A DNA stretch of 64,000 nt from an uncultured Clostridia bacterium (GTDB taxonomy: Bacteria; Bacillota; Clostridia; UMGS1883): the NCBI GenBank assembly GCA_934476455.1, contig CAKSNY010000002.1:10689-74688 (forward strand). Direction: 5' to 3'. The translations under genes were made by a program, and so were the position numbers. Of this stretch, positions 53,528 through 63,519 are shown piece after piece. How positions within the stretch are numbered: position 1 is the first letter of the stretch; every line of letters starts with the position of its first letter. The notes below the pieces were generated by a model. That model was not told the origin of the DNA. It searched no databases and worked only from the letters and a program-made list of their open reading frames with translations.

Positions 53528-54940
53528 TCAAAGGGTTTCCACACGTATTGTCCCCGTCTTTCCGCTGCCTGCGGGCGACATACCCTCTGTCATAACTATT
53601 GTATCGCCGCTTGTAAGCCCCAAATGCTCCCGCGCGGCACGTGCGGCATGGTAAAACAGCACGTCGCCCGATGTGAACTGTTCGCACATAACGGGTACAA
53701 CCCCCCAAGAAAGAGCAAGCTTATACCAAACCTTTTTGTCGGGCGTCATACCGATAATATCCATCGGCGCACGGAAGCGCGATACCATACGAACTGTTTT
53801 CCCGGAAAGAGAGCATGCAACAATTCCCTTTGCGGATATATCTATCGCCATACCGCACGTAGCGTGGGAAACGGCGTCCACCTGGTTTGTTATGGGAAAT
53901 TCCGCATTTCTGAAGCGTTTGGCAAAGTTTATATGCCGCTCGGTTTCTTCCACAATTTCGCTCATTGTGCGCACCGTTTCAACGGGGTATTTGCCCGCAG
54001 CGGATTCACCCGAAAGCATAACCGCGCTTGTGCCGTCATACACGGCGTTTGCAACGTCGGATATTTCCGCACGTGTCGGGCGGGGGTTGTGAATCATAGA
54101 TTCCAGCATTTCGGTTGCGGTTATAACGCGCTTGCCCAAAAGGCGGCATTTTGTAATAATGTATTTTTGCAGCGCCGGAAGCTCTGTAAACGGAACCTCT
54201 ACACCCAAATCGCCGCGGCCTATCATTATTCCGTCGCACTCGGTGCATATATCGTCTATATTATCAATTCCGGCACGGTTTTCTATTTTTGCTATTATGG
54301 CAATGTCGCCGCCGCCGTTTTCGCGGAGAAAGCCTTTAAGGTCAAGAATATCCTGTTTGGTGGAAACAAACGAAGCCGCAACGTAATCCACCCCGTTTTC
54401 TATACCGAAAAGAAGGTCACACTTGTCCTGCTCACTTAAATATACCTGGTGCAAAAGCTTATTCGGAAAGCTCATACTTTTTCTGTCGGAAAGCTCGCCC
54501 CCGGCAATAACGGTGCATACGATGTCCTCGCCGGTAATTTCCTTTACCTCGAAAATAACAAGCCCGTTATTTACAAGCACCCTGTCGCCCTTTAAAAGAT
54601 CCTTGCAAAGCCCTTTATAATTTACGGAAACGATTTCTTTGTTTCCCACACATTCACGCGTGGTAAAGGTGAAGGTGTCGCCGTCCTCCAGGCGGATTTT
54701 CCCGTTTTCAAAGGTACCTATTCTGTATTCGGGACCCTTGGTATCAAGCATTATGGCAATCGGCATATCAAGCGTTTCGCGCACCTTTTTTATCATATCA
54801 AACTTCTTTTTATGCTCCTCGTGCGAGCCGTGTGAAAAATTAAGCCGTGCAACGTTAAGCCCCGCAAGACACATTTTTGTGAACACCTTTTCAGAGCTGC
54901 TTGCAGGCCCTATTGTACATACTATTTTTGTTTTGCGCAT
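53528..54940 (-). CDS. pyk: pyruvate kinase
   Basis: MRKTKIVCTIGPAS N-terminus and conserved PK motifs; start set at 54940 behind GAGAGGGTG RBS. Confidence 0.9.
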   Translation of the reverse strand: MRKTKIVCTIGPASSSEKVFTKMCLAGLNVARLNFSHGSHEEHKKKFDMIKKVRETLDMPIAIMLDTKGPEYRIGTFENGKIRLEDGDTFTFTTRECVGNKEIVSVNYKGLCKDLLKGDRVLVNNGLVIFEVKEITGEDIVCTVIAGGELSDRKSMSFPNKLLHQVYLSEQDKCDLLFGIENGVDYVAASFVSTKQDILDLKGFLRENGGGDIAIIAKIENRAGIDNIDDICTECDGIMIGRGDLGVEVPFTELPALQKYIITKCRLLGKRVITATEMLESMIHNPRPTRAEISDVANAVYDGTSAVMLSGESAAGKYPVETVRTMSEIVEETERHINFAKRFRNAEFPITNQVDAVSHATCGMAIDISAKGIVACSLSGKTVRMVSRFRAPMDIIGMTPDKKVWYKLALSWGVVPVMCEQFTSGDVLFYHAARAAREHLGLTSGDTIVMTEGMSPAGSGKTGTIRVETL

Positions 54941-55091
54941 ATGCTGACACCCTCTCATTACAAAATCTTTCTTATTATATATTATATATGCAAAAAAACA
55001 TTTGTCAAGATTTTGCTTGCGGCAATTTACGTATTTTTATCACAGGGGGCATTATTTTATGTATGAAAATAATCACAACAAAAAAACACTA

Positions 55092-55120
55092 TTGACAAAG
55101 CGCGAAAAATGTTTTATTAT
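55092..55120 (+). promoter_or_regulatory. promoter of leader ORF / BCAA-related operon (-35 TTGACA, 17 nt, -10 TATTAT)
   Basis: hexamers at 55092-55097 and 55115-55120. Confidence 0.5.
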
Positions 55121-55151
55121 AGTAGCATACTTTGTGAAAGGAAAAAAGACG

Positions 55152-55265
55152 ATGAACACTGTATTTTATGTGATTAACATAATTGTCATTAACGCTATTA
55201 TTCTAATTGCCGTTACAGCAAAAAAGAATAGCGCTGTTTGTCGTGTGTGCAGAAAGGCGGCATAA
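55152..55265 (+). CDS. 37-codon Ile/Val-rich leader peptide (candidate attenuation leader) or small membrane peptide
   Basis: MNTVFYVINIIVINAIILIAVTAKKNSAVCRVCRKAA: 7 Ile + 6 Val in 37 residues; AAGGA RBS 9 nt upstream; followed 25 nt later by strong terminator. Confidence 0.5.
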   Translation: MNTVFYVINIIVINAIILIAVTAKKNSAVCRVCRKAA

Positions 55266-55289
55266 TCCGTTTTTTTGATATAAGGTTAT

Positions 55290-55325
55290 AACGCCTGCGG
55301 CAATTAGCGCCGCAGGCGTTTTTTA
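55290..55325 (+). terminator. intrinsic terminator/attenuator between leader ORF and operon
   Basis: perfect 12-bp stem aacgcctgcggc / gccgcaggcgtt with 7-nt loop, followed by tttttt. Confidence 0.65.
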
Positions 55326-55349
55326 ATAATTATGAAAGGATGAGCATAA

Positions 55350-56723
55350 ATGCGAAAAATCGGAATTTCGGACATTACACTGGCAACGGCAGGTGCAAGA
55401 GAGCTAAGCTTTAAGGAAAAGGTAGAAACGGCAAAGCAGCTAAGCCGTGCCGAAACGGATTGTATAGAGATGATGCCGCTTACAGGCTCAAAGGCAGACA
55501 TTATCTTTTATCATACTGTGTCCGGACTTACCGACAGGGAAATATGCTGCCCGATTTCTACGGAGGAGGGGCAGACACAGAAAGCTGCGGAGGCGCTTAA
55601 AAATGCGAAAAACGCTTCTGTAAATGTTTGCGTGCCGTCCTCCACCGTGCAGATGGAATATATAGGAAAGAAAAAGCCCGCGGCAATGCTTGCCGCTATG
55701 GAAAGTACCCTCGCAGAGGCGGCAGCGTGCTTTAAAACCACAGAGGTTACTTTTACGGACGCAACACGTGCCGATATAGGGTTTTTAACGCAGATGACAA
55801 AGAAGGCTGCGGAGGCGGGCGCATCGCGCATAACCGTGTGCGATGATGCGGGCGATATGCTGCCGAAAGAATTTAAAGAGCTTGTGAAGCTTGTTAAAGA
55901 GGCTGCGGGAAAAACGCCGGTAGGGGTGAAATGCTCTAACGAGTGCCATATGGCGGCAGCCTTTATGGCAGAGGCGATAGAAGAAGGTGCAGACTATGTA
56001 AAGACAACGGCGCTCGGGAAAGAGGCGGTTTCCCTTAGAACGGCGGCGGGGCTTATAAGCTCTAAGGGGAGCGCACTGGACTGCTTTTGCGGCGTTAATA
56101 TGACGGTGCTTTCGGATTGCAGCGACAAGATATTGCAGGCTGCCGAGGGTAAGGTAACCCCCAAAGCCTCTTTGAACGCGGGAAGCTTTTTTACCGGCAG
56201 TGAGGATATAACAGCCGTTTCACAGGCGGTAAAGGATTTGGGCTATGACCTTAGCGGCAACGATATTGCGGCGGTATACAGCGAATTTTTAAAGACCGCC
56301 GAAAAGAAGAAGGTTTCGCTGCGCGACCTTGACGCGATAGTTGCCGGCTGTGCAATGCAGGCGCCGCCGACCTTCAGCGTACAAAGCTTTGTTGTTACAA
56401 ACGGAAATCTTATAACACCGATGGCAAATATGACCATTGTAAAAAACGGCGAGGCGCTTTCCGGCTGCAGCGTGGGCGACGGACCGATTGACGCGGCGTT
56501 TCGCGCTATTGAGCAGATTGTAGGGCACCATACGGAACTGGACGATTTTCAGGTACAAGCCGTAACGCGCGGGCGCGAGGCGCTCGGCTCGGCAATTGTT
56601 AAGCTGCGTTCGGGCGGTGTTTTGTATTCGGGCAAGGGCATATCAACCGATATAGTGGAAGCGAGCATAGCTGCGTACATAAGCGCACTTAACAAAATAT
56701 ATTACGAGGAGGAAACAAAATGA
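55350..56723 (+). CDS. LeuA/homocitrate-synthase-family protein with degenerate catalytic barrel and intact C-terminal LeuA regulatory (dimerisation) domain
   Basis: C-terminal GDGPIDAAFRAIEQI...GKGISTDIVEASIAAYISALNKI matches LeuA allosteric domain; catalytic motifs replaced: LRDGEQ -> LATAGARE, HxHNDxG -> KCSNECH. Confidence 0.65.
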   Translation: MRKIGISDITLATAGARELSFKEKVETAKQLSRAETDCIEMMPLTGSKADIIFYHTVSGLTDREICCPISTEEGQTQKAAEALKNAKNASVNVCVPSSTVQMEYIGKKKPAAMLAAMESTLAEAAACFKTTEVTFTDATRADIGFLTQMTKKAAEAGASRITVCDDAGDMLPKEFKELVKLVKEAAGKTPVGVKCSNECHMAAAFMAEAIEEGADYVKTTALGKEAVSLRTAAGLISSKGSALDCFCGVNMTVLSDCSDKILQAAEGKVTPKASLNAGSFFTGSEDITAVSQAVKDLGYDLSGNDIAAVYSEFLKTAEKKKVSLRDLDAIVAGCAMQAPPTFSVQSFVVTNGNLITPMANMTIVKNGEALSGCSVGDGPIDAAFRAIEQIVGHHTELDDFQVQAVTRGREALGSAIVKLRSGGVLYSGKGISTDIVEASIAAYISALNKIYYEEETK

Positions 56724-59179
56724 AGCTTTCCTTTTCAACAAACTATCAAAAAACAGACGTAATGCAGGCGCTTGCCGCCGCGAACGAATACGGGTTTCAG
56801 GGGGTGGAAATTCACGATATAAGCGAAACCGAGAATTATGAAATTTCCGACGTGCGGCAAAAAACGGCACAGTACCGCGTGCATATATCGTGCATAGATA
56901 CCGCGGCGGATATATCGAAAGATTTTGACAAGGCATACGCGGAAGCGGTCTGTGCGATAAATAAGGCGGCAGAGCTGCACTGCCCGTACGTAAGGCTGCA
57001 TGCAGAGAGTGAGGATAATGTTTCAGCCTTTTTGCAAAAAACGCTTCCCGATGCCGAAAAAAATAAAATTGTGCTTCTGATAGAATCGTGCGGGGTATAC
57101 GGCGACACGTCAAAGCTGAGAGGGCTTTTGGAGCATTTCGCGTCGGACAGTTTAGGCGCTTTGTGGGATTTTTACCACCCGTACAGAAGCGCGGGCGAAA
57201 CGCCGGACGTCACCGTTAAAAATCTGGGTGCGTACATAAAGCACGTTCATATAAAAGATTCGGATGAAACGGGCGCGTATACCCTTATAGGCGAGGGCAC
57301 AGCCCCTATGGAGGATTTTTTCGGCGCGCTGAGGTCTGTTAATTACGACGGCTATATATCCCTTGAATGGAACGAAAAATGGGCAGACGAGGTAGGCGCC
57401 TGCGAGATAGCGTTTCCGCATTTTGTAAGCTTTATGAATAGGTTTGACGAAACGGCAACCGCAAAGCGCAGCCTTTATCAAAACAAGTCGCAAACGGGTA
57501 AATTTATATGGAAAAAGGACGCGCTTATCGAAAAAACCTTTTCACAGGTGCTGGATTGCTGCGTAGAGGAATTTCCCAACCAAACGGCGATAAGATATAC
57601 CACGCTTGACTATACGAGAACATACAGCCAATTCCGCGATGATGTGGATGAGTTTGCACGGGCGCTTGTTTCCGTAGGCGTTACGGCGGGCAGCCACGTT
57701 GCGGTATGGGCAACAAACGTGCCGCAGTGGTACATTGCGTTTTGGGCGGTTACGAAAATCGGCGCGGTGCTTGTCAGTATGAACACAGCCTACAAAATAC
57801 ACGAGGCAGAGTATTTGTTAAAGCAGTCGGACACGCACACGCTTATTATGACAGAGGGGTATCGGGACTCTAACTACAGAGAAATAATGCAAAAGCTTTG
57901 CCCCGAAACGGAAAACACACCTAAAAACGCCCCGCTTCACGCAAAGAGACTGCCGTTTTTAAGAAATATAATTACAGTAGGTTTTGAAATGCACGGCGCA
58001 ATGACATGGGACGAGGCGCGCGCCGGAGCCGCCGAAACACCGATAGAGGAAATTCACCGCCGCGCCGCTGCGGTAAGCGTGCACAGCGTTTGCAATATGC
58101 AGTATACAAGCGGTACGACGGGCTTTCCGAAGGGCGTAATGCTTACGCATTACAACATAGTAAACAACGGTAAATGTATAGGCGACAGAATGGATCTTTC
58201 CACAGCAGACAGAATGATGATACAGGTGCCGATGTTCCACTGTTTCGGAATGGTGCTGGCGATGACAGCCGCGATGACACATTCGGCAACAATTTTGCCG
58301 CTGCCGTACTTTTCGCCGCGTTCGGCACTTTCGTGCATTGAACACGAGCATATTACGTGCTTCCACGGCGTACCTACGATGTTTATTGCACTTTTGGAAA
58401 ATCCGGATTTTGAAAAGACGGACTTTTCATATATGCGCACCGGCATAATGGCGGGGTCGCCCTGCCCGGTGTCCGTAATGCAGGATGTTTTAAATAAAAT
58501 GAATATGCGCGAGATAACCATTGTTTACGGACAGACAGAGGCTTCGCCGGGCTGCACGATGAGCAGCACTGACGATTCCATCGAAACGCGCGTGGGAACG
58601 GTGGGAAGGGCACTTCCCGAGATAGAATGTAAAATAACAGACCCCGAAACGGGCGAGGAAATGCCCGTAGGCGAGGTTGGCGAGTTTGTGGCGCGCGGCT
58701 ACAACATTATGAAAGGCTACTACAAAATGCCGCACGAAACCGCTGCCGCAATAGATAAGGACGGCTGGCTGCATACCGGCGATTTGGCGCTTAAAACGGC
58801 GGACGGAAACTTCTGCATAACAGGGCGCCTTAAGGATATGATAATACGCGGGGGAGAAAATATTTACCCCAAGGAAATAGAGGAATTTATCTACACGCAC
58901 CCCTCTGTAAAGGACGTACAGGTTATCGGCGTGCCGGACGAGCAATACGGCGAGGAAATAATGGCATGCGTTATACTTAAAGAGGGCACCGCCCTTACCG
59001 CTGACGAGCTGAAGGGCTATATTGCGGAAAATATGGCAAAGCACAAGGTGCCGCGGTATATAGATTTTGTAGAGGAGTTCCCCATGAATGTAGCGGGCAA
59101 AATTCTTAAATATAAAATGCGCGAGGACGCAATAGAGCGCCTCGGCATAAAAAAAGCAGAAGGAATAACAGCGCAATAA
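56720..59179 (+). CDS. fusion protein: N-terminal xylose-isomerase-like TIM-barrel (sugar-phosphate isomerase/epimerase family) + C-terminal AMP-forming acyl-CoA synthetase
   Basis: N-terminal ~245 aa with WDFYHP...HVHIKD...SLEWNE motifs; C-terminal AMP-binding motifs YTSGTTGFPKGV, GYGQTE, WLHTGDLA, GRLKDMIIRGGENIYP; ATGA-coupled to upstream gene; strong GAGGAGG RBS. Confidence 0.75.
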   Translation: MKLSFSTNYQKTDVMQALAAANEYGFQGVEIHDISETENYEISDVRQKTAQYRVHISCIDTAADISKDFDKAYAEAVCAINKAAELHCPYVRLHAESEDNVSAFLQKTLPDAEKNKIVLLIESCGVYGDTSKLRGLLEHFASDSLGALWDFYHPYRSAGETPDVTVKNLGAYIKHVHIKDSDETGAYTLIGEGTAPMEDFFGALRSVNYDGYISLEWNEKWADEVGACEIAFPHFVSFMNRFDETATAKRSLYQNKSQTGKFIWKKDALIEKTFSQVLDCCVEEFPNQTAIRYTTLDYTRTYSQFRDDVDEFARALVSVGVTAGSHVAVWATNVPQWYIAFWAVTKIGAVLVSMNTAYKIHEAEYLLKQSDTHTLIMTEGYRDSNYREIMQKLCPETENTPKNAPLHAKRLPFLRNIITVGFEMHGAMTWDEARAGAAETPIEEIHRRAAAVSVHSVCNMQYTSGTTGFPKGVMLTHYNIVNNGKCIGDRMDLSTADRMMIQVPMFHCFGMVLAMTAAMTHSATILPLPYFSPRSALSCIEHEHITCFHGVPTMFIALLENPDFEKTDFSYMRTGIMAGSPCPVSVMQDVLNKMNMREITIVYGQTEASPGCTMSSTDDSIETRVGTVGRALPEIECKITDPETGEEMPVGEVGEFVARGYNIMKGYYKMPHETAAAIDKDGWLHTGDLALKTADGNFCITGRLKDMIIRGGENIYPKEIEEFIYTHPSVKDVQVIGVPDEQYGEEIMACVILKEGTALTADELKGYIAENMAKHKVPRYIDFVEEFPMNVAGKILKYKMREDAIERLGIKKAEGITAQ

Positions 59180-59200: not shown

Positions 59201-60268
59201 ATGCTTAACATTAAGGTAGAAAAAACAAAAAATCCTAAAACAAAACCGGCAAAGGGTGAAAAGCTGGGCTTCGGTAAAATTTTTACAGACCATATGTTTG
59301 AAATGGATTATACCGAGGGAAAGGGATGGCACGATGCAAGAATAGTGCCGTTTCACAATCTGGAGCTTTCGCCCGCAGCTATGGTTTTTCATTACGGACA
59401 GGAGATGTTCGAGGGGCTTAAGGCATACCGCGGGGCAGACGGAAAAGCGCGGCTTTTCCGCCCGGATATGAACGCAAAGCGTACTACAAACACAAACAAG
59501 CGCCTTTGCATACCGTATCTCCCCGAGGAGGATTTTGTGGAGGCTGTAAAGGCGGTTGTTAAGGTTGATGAGGACTGGATTCCGACAGAGGAGGGGACCT
59601 CGCTTTATATAAGACCGTTTATTATAGCTACGGACGAATTTTTGGGCGTTGCACCCGCGCAGACATACAAATTTATGGTAATTCTTTCACCGAGCGGCGC
59701 GTACTACGAAAGCGGGCTTGCACCGGTGGGCATCTGGGTAGAGGATGAATATGTGCGTGCGGTGCGCGGCGGAATGGGCTTTGCAAAAACGGGCGGTAAC
59801 TACGCCGCAAGCCTGATTGCGCAGGTGAAAGCACACGATGACGGATATTCGCAGGTTTTGTGGCTTGACGGTGTGGAGCAGAAATACATCGAAGAAGTGG
59901 GCGCAATGAACATCTTTTTCAGGATTGACGGAAAGGTTGTTACACCGAAGCTTAACGGAAGCATCCTGCCGGGGGTTACGCGTGACAGTGTGCTTCATCT
60001 TTGCAGGGCAATGGGCTTTGAAACAGAGGAGCGCCGCATAAGCATTGACGAGCTTATTGCCGCGCAAAAGGAAGGAAAGCTTGAGGAATGTTTCGGCACG
60101 GGAACGGCGGCAGTTATTTCACCTGTGGGCAAGCTGCGCTACAAAGATGACGTTATGACGATAAGCGGCAATAAAATAGGCGAGCTTACGCAAAAGCTTT
60201 ACGATAAATTAACTGGTATTCAATGGGGAAAATGTGAGGATGAGTTCGGATGGAGCGTAGTTCTTTAA
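59201..60268 (+). CDS. ilvE: branched-chain amino acid aminotransferase
   Basis: 355 aa; FGKIFTDHMF, GQEMFEGLKAYR, PLP-fold class IV motifs. Confidence 0.85.
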   Translation: MLNIKVEKTKNPKTKPAKGEKLGFGKIFTDHMFEMDYTEGKGWHDARIVPFHNLELSPAAMVFHYGQEMFEGLKAYRGADGKARLFRPDMNAKRTTNTNKRLCIPYLPEEDFVEAVKAVVKVDEDWIPTEEGTSLYIRPFIIATDEFLGVAPAQTYKFMVILSPSGAYYESGLAPVGIWVEDEYVRAVRGGMGFAKTGGNYAASLIAQVKAHDDGYSQVLWLDGVEQKYIEEVGAMNIFFRIDGKVVTPKLNGSILPGVTRDSVLHLCRAMGFETEERRISIDELIAAQKEGKLEECFGTGTAAVISPVGKLRYKDDVMTISGNKIGELTQKLYDKLTGIQWGKCEDEFGWSVVL

Positions 60269-61144: not shown

Positions 61145-61161
61145 GGAAAGGATTGAAAAAT

Positions 61162-62223
61162 ATGGCTGAAAAAGTTTTGATGAAAGGAAACGAAGCTTTG
61201 GCAGAGGCTGCAATAATGGCAGGCTGCCGCCACTACTTCGGATATCCTATCACCCCGCAGACAGAGGTTGCGGCGTATATGGCAAAAAGAATGCCTAAAA
61301 TCGGCGGAACATTTCTTCAGGCGGAAAGCGAAATTGCCGCAATAAATATGGTTATCGGTGTGGCTTCGACGGGGAAAAGGGCGATGACGTCAAGCTCCAG
61401 CCCCGGCATAAGCCTTAAAAGCGAAGGTATATCGTATCTTGCGGGGTGCGATTTGCCCGCGCTTATTGTAAACGTTCAGCGCGGCGGTCCCGGGCTCGGC
61501 GGAATACAGCCGTCGCAGTCGGACTATTTCCAGGCAACGCGCGGCGCCGGGCATGGAGATTTTCACCTGATAGTGCTTGCACCGGCAAGCGTGCAGGAAA
61601 TGGTAGAGCTTGTTTTCCGCGGTTTTGACCTGGGCGAAAAGTACCGTATGCCCGTTATGCTTTTGTCAGACGGCACAATGGGGCAGATGATGGAACCCGT
61701 AGTGCTTGAACAAAAGGAAATCGTACAATATGATAAATCGTGGGCGCTTACGGGAACGGACGGCGTGCGCAAGCCAAACATTGTAAATTCGCTTTTCTTA
61801 AAGCCCGAAGAACTGGAAAAATTCAACTTTGCGCGGTACGAGCGTTACAAAAAAATCGAAGAAACCGAAACCATGTACGAGGAATATAAAATGGAGGACG
61901 CGGAAATTTGCGTCGTAGCGTTCGGCGTGGCGTCACGCGTTTCAAAAAATGCGATAGACGAGGCGCGTGCCATGGGCATAAAGGTAGGTATGATAAGACC
62001 CATCACCCTTTGGCCTTTCCCGAAAAAAGCTCTTTTGAAGGCTTCGGAAAAAGTTAAGAAATTTATTTCGGTAGAGCTTTCAATGGGGCAAATGACAGAG
62101 GATATTTCACTGGCTGTAAAATGCCGCCGCGAGGTGCTTCTTTGCAACCGCACCGGCGGAATGATACCCACAACGGCAGAGGTTGTGGCAAAAATAAAAG
62201 AAGCTTGCGGAGGTGCAGAGTAA
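61162..62223 (+). CDS. 2-oxoacid:ferredoxin oxidoreductase alpha subunit
   Basis: KorA/VorA/PorA-like N-terminus (LMKGNEALAEAAIMAGCRHYFGYPITPQTE). Confidence 0.8.
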   Translation: MAEKVLMKGNEALAEAAIMAGCRHYFGYPITPQTEVAAYMAKRMPKIGGTFLQAESEIAAINMVIGVASTGKRAMTSSSSPGISLKSEGISYLAGCDLPALIVNVQRGGPGLGGIQPSQSDYFQATRGAGHGDFHLIVLAPASVQEMVELVFRGFDLGEKYRMPVMLLSDGTMGQMMEPVVLEQKEIVQYDKSWALTGTDGVRKPNIVNSLFLKPEELEKFNFARYERYKKIEETETMYEEYKMEDAEICVVAFGVASRVSKNAIDEARAMGIKVGMIRPITLWPFPKKALLKASEKVKKFISVELSMGQMTEDISLAVKCRREVLLCNRTGGMIPTTAEVVAKIKEACGGAE

Positions 62224-62966
62224 TGGTAGTTTTTGAAAAGCCTAAGGCGCTTACGGACGCGCCGCTTCATTACTGCCCGGGCTGTACGCACGGCATTATA
62301 CACAGGCTTGTTGCACAGGCAATAGACGAGCTTGGCATTGCGGGGCGTACGATAGGCGTAGCGTCGGTAGGGTGCAGCGTGTTTGCATATAATTATTTTA
62401 ACTGTGATATGGTACAGGCAGCGCACGGGCGCGCACCTGCGGTGGCAACGGGCGTAAAGCGCAGCGACCCCGAAAAAAACATCGTCTTTACATATCAGGG
62501 CGACGGCGACCTTGCCGCAATAGGAACAGCGGAAACCGTACACAGTGCGGCACGCGGCGAAAACATAACGGTAATATTTGTAAACAATGCCATTTACGGT
62601 ATGACGGGCGGGCAGATGGCACCCACAACGCTGCCGGGGCAGAAAACGCAGACATCGCCGTACGGGCGTGACGTCAGTACAGTGGGCTATCCCGTAAAGG
62701 TATGCGAACTGCTTTCAAATGTGGACGGTGCGGCGTATCTCGAACGCGTGGCGGTCAACAATCCGGCAAACGTTAAAAAGGCAAAAGCGGCAATTAAAAA
62801 GGCGTTTTCAAACCAGCTTGAAAACAAGGGCTTTTCTCTTGTAGAGGTGCTTTCAACCTGCCCCACAAACTGGGGATTGGAACCGCAGAAGGCGCTTAAC
62901 TGGCTGGAAGAAAATATGATTCCGTATTACCCGTTGGGTGTTTACAAGGATAAATATGCAAAGTGA
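62223..62966 (+). CDS. 2-oxoacid:ferredoxin oxidoreductase beta subunit (TPP-binding)
   Basis: YCPGCTHG and TPP motif GDGD...N; start ATG overlaps alpha stop (TAATG). Confidence 0.8.
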   Translation: MVVFEKPKALTDAPLHYCPGCTHGIIHRLVAQAIDELGIAGRTIGVASVGCSVFAYNYFNCDMVQAAHGRAPAVATGVKRSDPEKNIVFTYQGDGDLAAIGTAETVHSAARGENITVIFVNNAIYGMTGGQMAPTTLPGQKTQTSPYGRDVSTVGYPVKVCELLSNVDGAAYLERVAVNNPANVKKAKAAIKKAFSNQLENKGFSLVEVLSTCPTNWGLEPQKALNWLEENMIPYYPLGVYKDKYAK

Positions 62967-62976
62967 GGTGCGCAGA

Positions 62977-63519
62977 ATGAATAAAGAAATACTTATAGCG
63001 GGCTTCGGCGGTCAGGGGATTTTGTTTTCGGGGAAATTTCTTGCTTACGAAGGTCTTATAGAAAACCGCAATGTAAGCTGGCTGCCGTCTTACGGACCGG
63101 AAATGCGCGGCGGCACCGCAAATTGCAGCATTATTTTAAGCGACGGCGCTATAGGCTCGCCGATTGTTACAAATCCTGACATACTTATAGCGATGAATTT
63201 ACCCTCGCTTGACAAGTACGAAGCGGAAACAAAGCCGGGCGGCGAAATATTTGCGGAAAGCTCGCTCATTGAAAGAAAGCTCAGCCGCACAGACGTTTCG
63301 GGCTATTACATTCCCGCAACGCATCTTGCCGACGAAAACGGGCTTTCGGGTCTTGCAAATATGATTATGCTGGGATATATGATTAAGAAAAGCGGCGTAA
63401 TTCCGACAGAAAATATAGACGCCGCACTCTCAAAGGTTGTGCCGCCGTCAAAGGCACACCTTATCGAAAAGAACAGGCAGGCAATAGATATAGGCTATAA
63501 CTACGGAGAGGAGAAGTAA
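62977..63519 (+). CDS. 2-oxoacid:ferredoxin oxidoreductase gamma subunit
   Basis: ILIAGFGGQG N-terminus; GTGAGGTG RBS. Confidence 0.8.
   Translation: MNKEILIAGFGGQGILFSGKFLAYEGLIENRNVSWLPSYGPEMRGGTANCSIILSDGAIGSPIVTNPDILIAMNLPSLDKYEAETKPGGEIFAESSLIERKLSRTDVSGYYIPATHLADENGLSGLANMIMLGYMIKKSGVIPTENIDAALSKVVPPSKAHLIEKNRQAIDIGYNYGEEK

Follow-up and report, generated by a model that had tools for sequence, protein, structure and literature searches.

We describe here a putative isoleucine-sensing attenuator in front of an operon for branched-chain amino-acid and acid metabolism in an uncultured Clostridia bacterium (GTDB lineage Bacteria; Bacillota; Clostridia; UMGS1883). The analysed stretch, referred to below as the window, comprises 64,000 nucleotides of contig CAKSNY010000002.1 (assembly GCA_934476455.1, positions 10,689 to 74,688 of the forward strand), and the element extends from position 55152, where a short open reading frame (ORF) begins, to the end of an intrinsic terminator just upstream of the first long gene. 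On in silico evidence we consider it probable (roughly 0.78) that this element is a ribosome-mediated leader-peptide transcription attenuator, which would sense charged tRNA-Ile and gate transcription from the promoter at 55092-55120 into the operon. An initial annotation, made from the sequence alone, had listed a promoter, a Shine-Dalgarno (SD) site, an Ile/Val-rich ORF, a terminator and the first long gene behind it, and had proposed attenuation on this basis. All of these parts are present. The leader peptide, MNTVFYVINIIVINAIILIAVTAKKNSAVCRVCRKAA, contains 7 Ile, 6 Val and 1 Leu in 37 residues, and the figures given for Ile+Val (35% overall, 11 of the first 22 residues) were reproduced on recounting, as was the perfect 12-bp GC-rich hairpin with its T-run, which ends at 55324; the gap between the stop codon and the hairpin measures 24 nt and not 25.

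Four segments of the leader would take part in the switch. Region 1 carries Ala-Ile-Ile-(Ile)-Leu codons within the Ile-rich run and is followed by regions 2 and 3, with the 3' arm of the terminator as region 4. When Ile is plentiful, the ribosome would cross the Ile codons and region 2 and reach the stop codon, and region 2 would be either covered or re-paired with region 1 (in the window, also with a segment around the start codon); with region 2 unavailable, the 3:4 terminator would form and transcription would end at 55324. When Ile-tRNA is scarce, the ribosome would stall on the Ile codons, holding region 1 open without reaching region 2, which would then pair with region 3 as it emerges, preclude the terminator and let RNA polymerase read into the operon. 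We infer from the codon composition that Ile is the physiological signal and, from the folding models described below, that the position of the ribosome decides the fold.

A family of Ile-rich leaders in Clostridia

Homologous loci were collected by a scan with the LeuA-like protein encoded by the first structural gene, by look-ups of homologues of this protein and of the leader peptide, and by one DNA-pattern scan of metagenomes. The genome-contig scan with the LeuA-like protein returned only two loci, and the metagenome scan yielded four true and two chance matches. Altogether, 12 distinct leaders were compared: that of the window (with the near-identical L018), L001, L003-7/L017, L008-10, L011, L012, L019, L020, L022, L028/29, L030 and L031/32. 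The layout of promoter, SD sequence, ORF and terminator thus recurs in 11 further distinct lineages and is not a product of chance. Wherever the title of a carrier names an organism, it is a metagenome-assembled genome of Oscillospiraceae, Ruminococcaceae or Clostridia, and the LeuA-like proteins encoded next to the leaders now share 44-65% identity. The terminator is kept at all homologous loci; the combination of a conserved hydrophobic peptide with a missing terminator, which the initial annotation had named as a sign of a small membrane protein, was found in none of them. A profile search with the peptide retrieved 42 clusters of small proteins of 32-40 aa, together with a few longer ones with mis-called starts, and gave the family consensus M-x4-F-T-A-x-I-L-L-I-N-A-I-I-I-L-A-I-I-K-x2-K-N-S-A-[VFI]-C-R-V.

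Strong, albeit indirect, evidence from the aligned sequences argues that the leader ORF is translated. All 12 leader lineages have an equivalent TTGACA...TATAAT-like promoter at the same distance (31 nt between the end of the -10 box and the ATG in the window, 55121-55151), and the ORF begins at the 5' end of the transcript with an SD sequence and a start codon. The ATG is an invariant alignment column, preceded in the other lineages by a purine-rich SD sequence 9-12 nt upstream, which varies in sequence and is weak in L011. The distances from the ATG to region 1 differ by 3 or 6 nt. Summed over the 12 leaders, the stretch between the ATG and region 2, which is 59-75% A+T, contains a single stop codon in frame 0 versus 33 and 24 in the other two frames.

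The cluster of Ile codons is exceptional for its surroundings and stands before an operon that encodes IlvE and VorB. In the leader of the window the densest 14-residue segment holds 7 Ile, a value never reached in the long ORFs, either in the window itself (16,682 segments) or in the fetched loci (71,144 segments); among the strongly hydrophobic segments of these two background sets (200 and 118, respectively) the maximum is 6. The 38 distinct peptides of the family consist of 20% Ile, 13% Leu and 6% Val, with a maximum of 5-9 Ile per 14 residues. The conserved signal is therefore Ile, and of the Ile/Val signal that had been proposed initially only the Ile part applies to the family, the richness in Val being peculiar to the lineage of the window. 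The core of region 1, GCT-ATW-ATT-ATT-CTA, is kept at third positions too.

Mutually exclusive RNA structures

The leader ORF is separated from the first structural gene by an intrinsic terminator. Its arms, AACGCCTGCGGC and GCCGCAGGCGTT, form a perfect 12-bp stem with 9 G-C pairs and a 7-nt loop. In the alignment 98% of the cells are paired, six pairs are changed on both sides, and none of 500 shuffles was as good. The terminator was also predicted independently by RNAalifold, which on the alignment of the 12 leaders returned nothing else except a trivial 4-bp hairpin. As MAFFT splits the AUU repeats, the hairpin formed by regions 1 and 2 (P1) was assessed sequence by sequence. In the window it joins CGCUAUU (55193-55199) to AAUAGCG (55227-55233), and a hairpin of this kind is present in the minimum-free-energy (MFE) fold of all 12 leaders, with duplex energies of -7.5 to -13.5 kcal/mol; among shuffled partners, 0-3.6% were as good. 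In L022 the two strands carry changes that compensate each other (GCGCUAUC / GAUAGUGC), and L001 uses a shifted register. The 5' strand of P1 includes the regulatory codons, as would be expected of an anti-antiterminator.

The competing antiterminator, which the initial annotation had proposed to look for by folding, was found as a pairing of region 2 with region 3, namely of AGCGCUGUUUGUCG (55230-55243) with CGGCAAUUAGCGC (55298-55310). It is conserved, and the segment that would sequester region 2 contains the regulatory codons. In the first nine leaders 92% of the alignment cells are paired in this register, versus 26-62% after the partner is slid by 1-3 columns. The duplex amounts to -16.8 to -20.2 kcal/mol in 11 of the 12 leaders (shuffles gave -7 to -10, with at most 0.4% as good) and is thereby close in energy to the terminator hairpin, at -20 to -24 kcal/mol. 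The two structures exclude each other, because region 3 begins four bases before the end of the terminator 5' arm, spans the whole loop (AUUAGCGC) and ends two bases into the 3' arm; similarly, AGCG is common to P1 and the antiterminator. The loop of a plain terminator is expected to be free to drift. Here, it varies only between A and G and between C and U, at positions that face U and G of region 2, and the pairing is kept. Sequestration of the SD sequence and start codon by region 2 was considered as a further conserved feature and discarded, as it holds only in the window and L001.

Ribosome position and the choice of fold

Transcripts ending just past region 3 were folded with approximately 28 nt masked as the ribosome footprint. 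Without a ribosome, the net gain from forming the antiterminator lies between -1.4 and +3.1 kcal/mol in seven leaders, and is -4.0 in L011 and -6.4 in L012. With the A site placed on the Ile codons of region 1 (the first, or two codons on), the gain rises to -5 to -10 kcal/mol in 9 of the 12 leaders and the antiterminator enters the MFE fold. A ribosome at the stop codon covers region 2, likewise in 9 of 12 (the stop lies 4-10 nt past region 2, and in L011 it overlaps the beginning of the motif). These models suggest that a ribosome stalled at Ile codons would promote read-through and one that completes the peptide would not.

Several observations weigh against the attenuator. In the window the antiterminator wins at the calculated equilibrium whatever the state of the ribosome (-9.2, -10.4 and -12.4, and -5.3 kcal/mol with the ribosome at the stop codon); equilibrium energies therefore do not discriminate here, and discrimination would have to be kinetic, through pausing and the order of folding. 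L001 discriminates weakly too, and masking by the ribosome has a slight effect in both leaders. The changes in the antiterminator are one-sided only, and the column-shuffle control was not significant (188/500). Two-sided covariation is lacking because region 2 never varies, and we regard the antiterminator as a conserved complementarity, which falls short of proof by covariation. L022 does not fit the model, having an Ile-poor ORF of 22 codons, a different terminator and no convincing 2:3 pairing. Lastly, codon sensing alone would not demand peptides as conserved and as uniformly hydrophobic as these (F-T-A-x-I-L-L-I-N-A-I-I-I-L-A-I-I-K), and the distance from the ATG to region 1 is fixed at 14-15 codons. 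The in silico tests that were run, concerning the antiterminator, the placement of the codons, the conservation of the ORF and the retention of the terminator, were nevertheless all survived by the attenuator reading.

An RNA motif at the end of the ORF, and alternative explanations

Region 2 is the most strongly conserved part of the leader. The 18-mer AATAGCGCT(G/T/A)TTTGTCGT (in DNA letters, 55227-55244) is identical at the nucleotide level in 11 of the 12 lineages, and this identity covers every synonymous position of the encoded Asn-Ser-Ala-x-Cys-Arg, i.e. NSA(V/F/I)CR. In L011 a 1-nt difference in the spacer places a stop codon at the beginning of the motif, so that region 2 is read in another frame, and in L022 the ORF ends 5 nt before it; both leaders retain the nucleotides of region 2 and a terminator. 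Judged from these sequences, the C-terminal 'peptide motif' is an RNA motif and is constrained at the RNA level. The position of the stop codon follows it, 4-10 nt past region 2 in most lineages or else inside or just before the motif, and 19 nt past it in the window and L001. Elsewhere in the window, near-matches to region 2 with up to three mismatches occur at 2325, 17459, 41294, 42628 and 44872, i.e. five against 0.38 expected from dinucleotide shuffles. As candidates for further leaders they were rejected: all fall within long coding ORFs, mostly antisense, and lack the leader layout. Their surplus is probably an effect of codon usage.

Of the alternatives, the one that fares best retains the Ile attenuator and adds a second role, the leader also encoding a conserved single-pass membrane micro-protein (or a switch tuned by membrane insertion) and gating a hitherto uncharacterised salvage operon from branched acids to Ile and Val, with the catalytically dead LeuA homologue, reduced to its amino-acid-binding domain, as allosteric sensor. 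We hold such a dual function to be possible, with the odds clearly against it. More doubtful is the reading in which the ORF is simply a single-pass membrane micro-protein, the first gene of the operon, whose leaky or constitutive terminator sets stoichiometry with no sensing of amino acids. The initial annotation had already raised a small membrane protein as its alternative, and the transmembrane-like character it pointed to is real: the 42 clusters share a conserved hydrophobic core some 20 residues long and a tail with K/R, the N-terminal half shows more hydrophobicity (F, A, L, T) than Ile codons would call for, the core keeps a fixed distance from the ATG, and related operons have a longer hydrophobic ORF of 83-95 aa at the same place. 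What weakens it is that conservation follows the nucleotides, as NSA(V/F/I)CR is invariant at synonymous sites and survives out of frame or past the stop codon, and the GCU-AUW-AUU-AUU-CUA core is likewise conserved as nucleotides. Furthermore, the Ile density exceeds that of any hydrophobic segment of neighbouring proteins, and the terminator loop is constrained to complement the 3' end of the ORF, which is needless for a simple terminator. No Pfam or NCBIfam family matches the leader peptide, and peptide conservation independent of the nucleotides was not found in the family.

Less probable again is a terminator/antiterminator switch run by a factor acting in trans, such as an RNA-binding protein of the TRAP, PyrR or LicT kind or a small ligand, which would recognise the 18-mer and make translation incidental or modulatory. 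It would account for the absolute invariance of region 2 where pairing alone tolerates covariation, for the palindromic AGCGCU, which resembles the binding site of a dimer, and for the retention of the motif in L022 despite its Ile-poor ORF; the first product of the operon, a dead LeuA homologue with an amino-acid-binding allosteric domain, is a conceivable regulator. Such a switch leaves the extreme Ile density unexplained, however, and is at odds with the strong signal of a translated ORF (retained ATG and SD sequence, frame-preserving indels, one stop codon versus 33 and 24) and with a stop-codon position that tracks region 2. The invariance of region 2 is expected in any case from two pairings and a reading frame, and no Rfam family was matched. 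[quoted passage not shown]

Comparison with known regulatory leaders

The leaders of ilvGMEDA (ilvL) and ilvBN in E. coli and Salmonella are classic leader-peptide attenuators. The Clostridia leader shares with them a promoter-proximal ORF (of about 32 codons there) rich in Ile, Val and Leu, the 1:2, 2:3 and 3:4 pairing logic, regulatory codons inside segment 1, and an intrinsic terminator that immediately precedes the first structural gene. It differs in belonging to another phylum and in having no sequence similarity to them; the family is dominated by Ile and contains little Val or Leu, the terminator loop forms part of region 3, and the genes controlled are a set of acyl-CoA ligase, 2-oxoacid:ferredoxin oxidoreductase (VOR) and IlvE. 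The ilv/leu-type layout recognised by the initial annotation was thus apt for the logic of attenuation and not for the operon, which is no canonical ilv/leu operon.

To our knowledge, nearly all documented cases of leader-peptide attenuation come from Proteobacteria, Actinobacteria and a few Bacilli. The T-box riboswitch is the usual solution of Firmicutes for sensing aminoacyl-tRNA. It resembles the Clostridia leader in its input (tRNA charging) and output (terminator versus antiterminator), whereas the latter is only about 200 nt long and has a translated ORF in place of a specifier loop and T-box sequence; no T-box covariance-model match was obtained at E<=10 in 54800-55500. A search for CodY boxes with up to three mismatches found none near the leader. 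The view of the initial annotation that such an attenuator would be unusual in Firmicutes has to be tempered by precedents in Bacilli: the ilvD attenuator peptide of S. aureus (26 aa, Leu-rich) is experimentally supported (PMC5794164), as is the 13-aa leader peptide of Rli60 in Listeria monocytogenes, with mixed branched-chain amino-acid codons (PMC5864092), and a His leader has been predicted in bacilli (PMC2965389). The leaders of ilvD and Rli60 have in common with the Clostridia leader a BCAA (branched-chain amino acid)-codon-rich peptide in a Firmicute and alternative terminator and antiterminator hairpins, which there lie upstream of BCAA biosynthesis genes. Unlike it, they precede the canonical ilv-leu operon and act together with CodY; the Clostridia leader is Ile-specific and unrelated to them in sequence, with no CodY box found.

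The best Rfam match, Thr_leader (RF00506, 55186-55326), aligns the codon-run hairpin and the terminator at 21.9 bits versus a gathering threshold of 55 (E = 0.12). Membership was rejected, as the match is sub-threshold and driven by the generic terminator. The other Rfam leader families (Leu, His, Trp, leu/phe, rli60 and others) gave no match at E<=10, none of the leader families reached its threshold, and on the L030 leader only sub-threshold noise appeared (E<=1). The open-access full-text literature contained no description of the element, of a Clostridia Ile leader or of a leader-peptide attenuator before this operon. By its sequence, the element has every feature by which leader-peptide attenuators are recognised. 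It represents a well-conserved family that spans at least 12 DNA lineages and 42 peptide clusters from uncultured Clostridia of the gut and rumen; the family is absent from Rfam, and gene callers that do not miss it label it a hypothetical protein of 32-40 aa. The taxonomic range of classical attenuation would thereby be extended.

Organisation of the locus

The features of the locus are compiled in Table 1. The neighbouring gene upstream, for pyruvate kinase (53528-54958), is on the opposite strand and has its own divergent promoter, and the terminator at 55290-55324 consequently belongs only to the transcript of the short ORF. The promoter of the pyruvate kinase gene (54981-55008, - strand) is a perfect consensus, TTGACA-16-TATAAT (12/12), so that the 390-nt intergenic region holds two strong promoters back to back.

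Table 1. Elements of the leader and genes of the downstream operon, in positions of the window.
Feature	Position	Strand	Remarks
Sigma-70-type promoter, TTGACA-17-TATTAT	55092..55120	+	11/12 consensus positions
Shine-Dalgarno sequence of leader ORF, AAAGGA	55137..55142	+	Read from sequence; 9 nt 5' of ATG
Start-codon segment, ACGAUGAACA	55149..55158	+	Predicted to pair with 3' half of region 2 (55235-55244) in untranslated RNA; MFE fold
Leader ORF, 37 codons and stop	55152..55265	+	ATG 55152, TAA 55263-55265
Ile/Val codon cluster, codons 8-21 (I N I I V I N A I I L I A V), proposed sensing codons	55173..55214	+	7 Ile in 14 residues
Region 1, CGCUAUUAUUCUA, 5' strand of putative anti-antiterminator hairpin P1	55193..55205	+	Carries conserved A-I-I-L codons; MFE pairing with 55227-55233
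Region 2, invariant motif AAUAGCGCU(G/U/A)UUUGUCGU	55227..55244	+	5' half pairs with region 1, nearly all with region 3 (predicted)
Small hairpin, leader stop codon in loop, followed by U-run (U7)	55250..55277	+	MFE fold
Intrinsic terminator (regions 3:4), 12-bp stem and U-tract	55290..55324	+	Hairpin 55290-55320, T-run 55319-55324
Region 3, CGGCAAUUAGCGC, predicted partner of region 2 in antiterminator	55298..55310	+	Complementarity across leaders
First structural gene, LeuA-like	55350..56723	+	Start 55350, 3' of terminator
Xylose-isomerase-like TIM barrel fused to AMP-forming acyl-CoA ligase	56720-59179
IlvE	59201-60268		Above equivalog cut-off
P-loop protein	Between IlvE and VorB/A/C
VorB/A/C, 2-oxoacid:ferredoxin oxidoreductase	61153-63519		Alpha subunit 539 bits versus VorB subfamily cut-off of 399

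The small hairpin at 55250-55277 has an analogue in L001 (GAGC-GUAA-GCUC followed by U5), and the other lineages have unrelated hairpins in the spacer. A stop codon in the loop is confined to the two lineages in which the ORF runs 19 nt past region 2. This hairpin might pause transcription and so keep the ribosome and RNA polymerase in step, or it might act as a weak first terminator.

The downstream operon and variant loci

The operon, common to the leader family, encodes a LeuA-like protein, the fusion of a TIM barrel with an acyl-CoA ligase, IlvE, a P-loop protein, a ferredoxin and VorB/A/C. The same gene order, usually with the small ferredoxin, was found in every long homologous contig (L003, L024, L025, L028, L030 and L031). 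The LeuA-like protein possesses HMGL-like and LeuA_dimer domains and scores far below all NCBIfam cut-offs for isopropylmalate and citramalate synthases. It lacks the catalytic signatures, with DITLATAG in place of DTTLRDGEQ and KCSNE at the HxH(D/N)D metal site (from an alignment to PDB 3ewb), and retains the LeuA_dimer allosteric domain; the product is probably a pseudo-enzyme or a regulatory subunit. Its family is large, with thousands of database matches at E<=1e-30, the top 120 of which share 43-65% identity except for one cluster at 99%, and its gene is always followed by the fusion of TIM barrel and AMP-forming ligase.

An acyl-CoA ligase, VOR and a transaminase together constitute the reductive-carboxylation route from isobutyrate and 2-methylbutyrate to Val and Ile, which has long been known physiologically in rumen anaerobes. 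Most plausibly, the operon makes Ile and Val from 2-methylbutyrate and isobutyrate, a pathway direction that is deduced. The Ile specificity of the leader can itself serve as annotation here, as an operon induced by a shortage of Ile-tRNA would most simply be biosynthetic and run from these acids to the amino acids. The element thus offers a genetic handle on the pathway and a testable prediction of its direction.

Three orthologous operons are preceded by a longer ORF of 83-95 aa (L002 5633-5965, L024 5639-5975 and L025 4874-5190). Within it are an internal hairpin with a U-tract (e.g. GCAGACACTGTTTTATCAGTGTCTGC+T6) and then an Ile-rich NAIII segment, and the 5' arm and loop of a second terminator (GGTTTTGCTTTTT) complement AAAAAGCAAA(A)C near the end of the ORF. 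The encoded protein had only two clusters in the database and no Pfam family. These leaders may represent the same attenuator in tandem or elaborated form, or they may encode a two-helix membrane protein. In L030 (7110-7335) approximately 200 extra nt, for which no Rfam family match was obtained, separate the leader terminator from the LeuA-like gene and end in a second terminator-like hairpin (GAAGCGGCACGCTTC+T6). In L022 (5787-5965), where the 22-codon ORF stops before the motif and the terminator is different, the LeuA-like gene and the ligase gene alone make up the operon, and his genes (hisZ/G/D) come next; this leader may be a degenerating or re-purposed copy.

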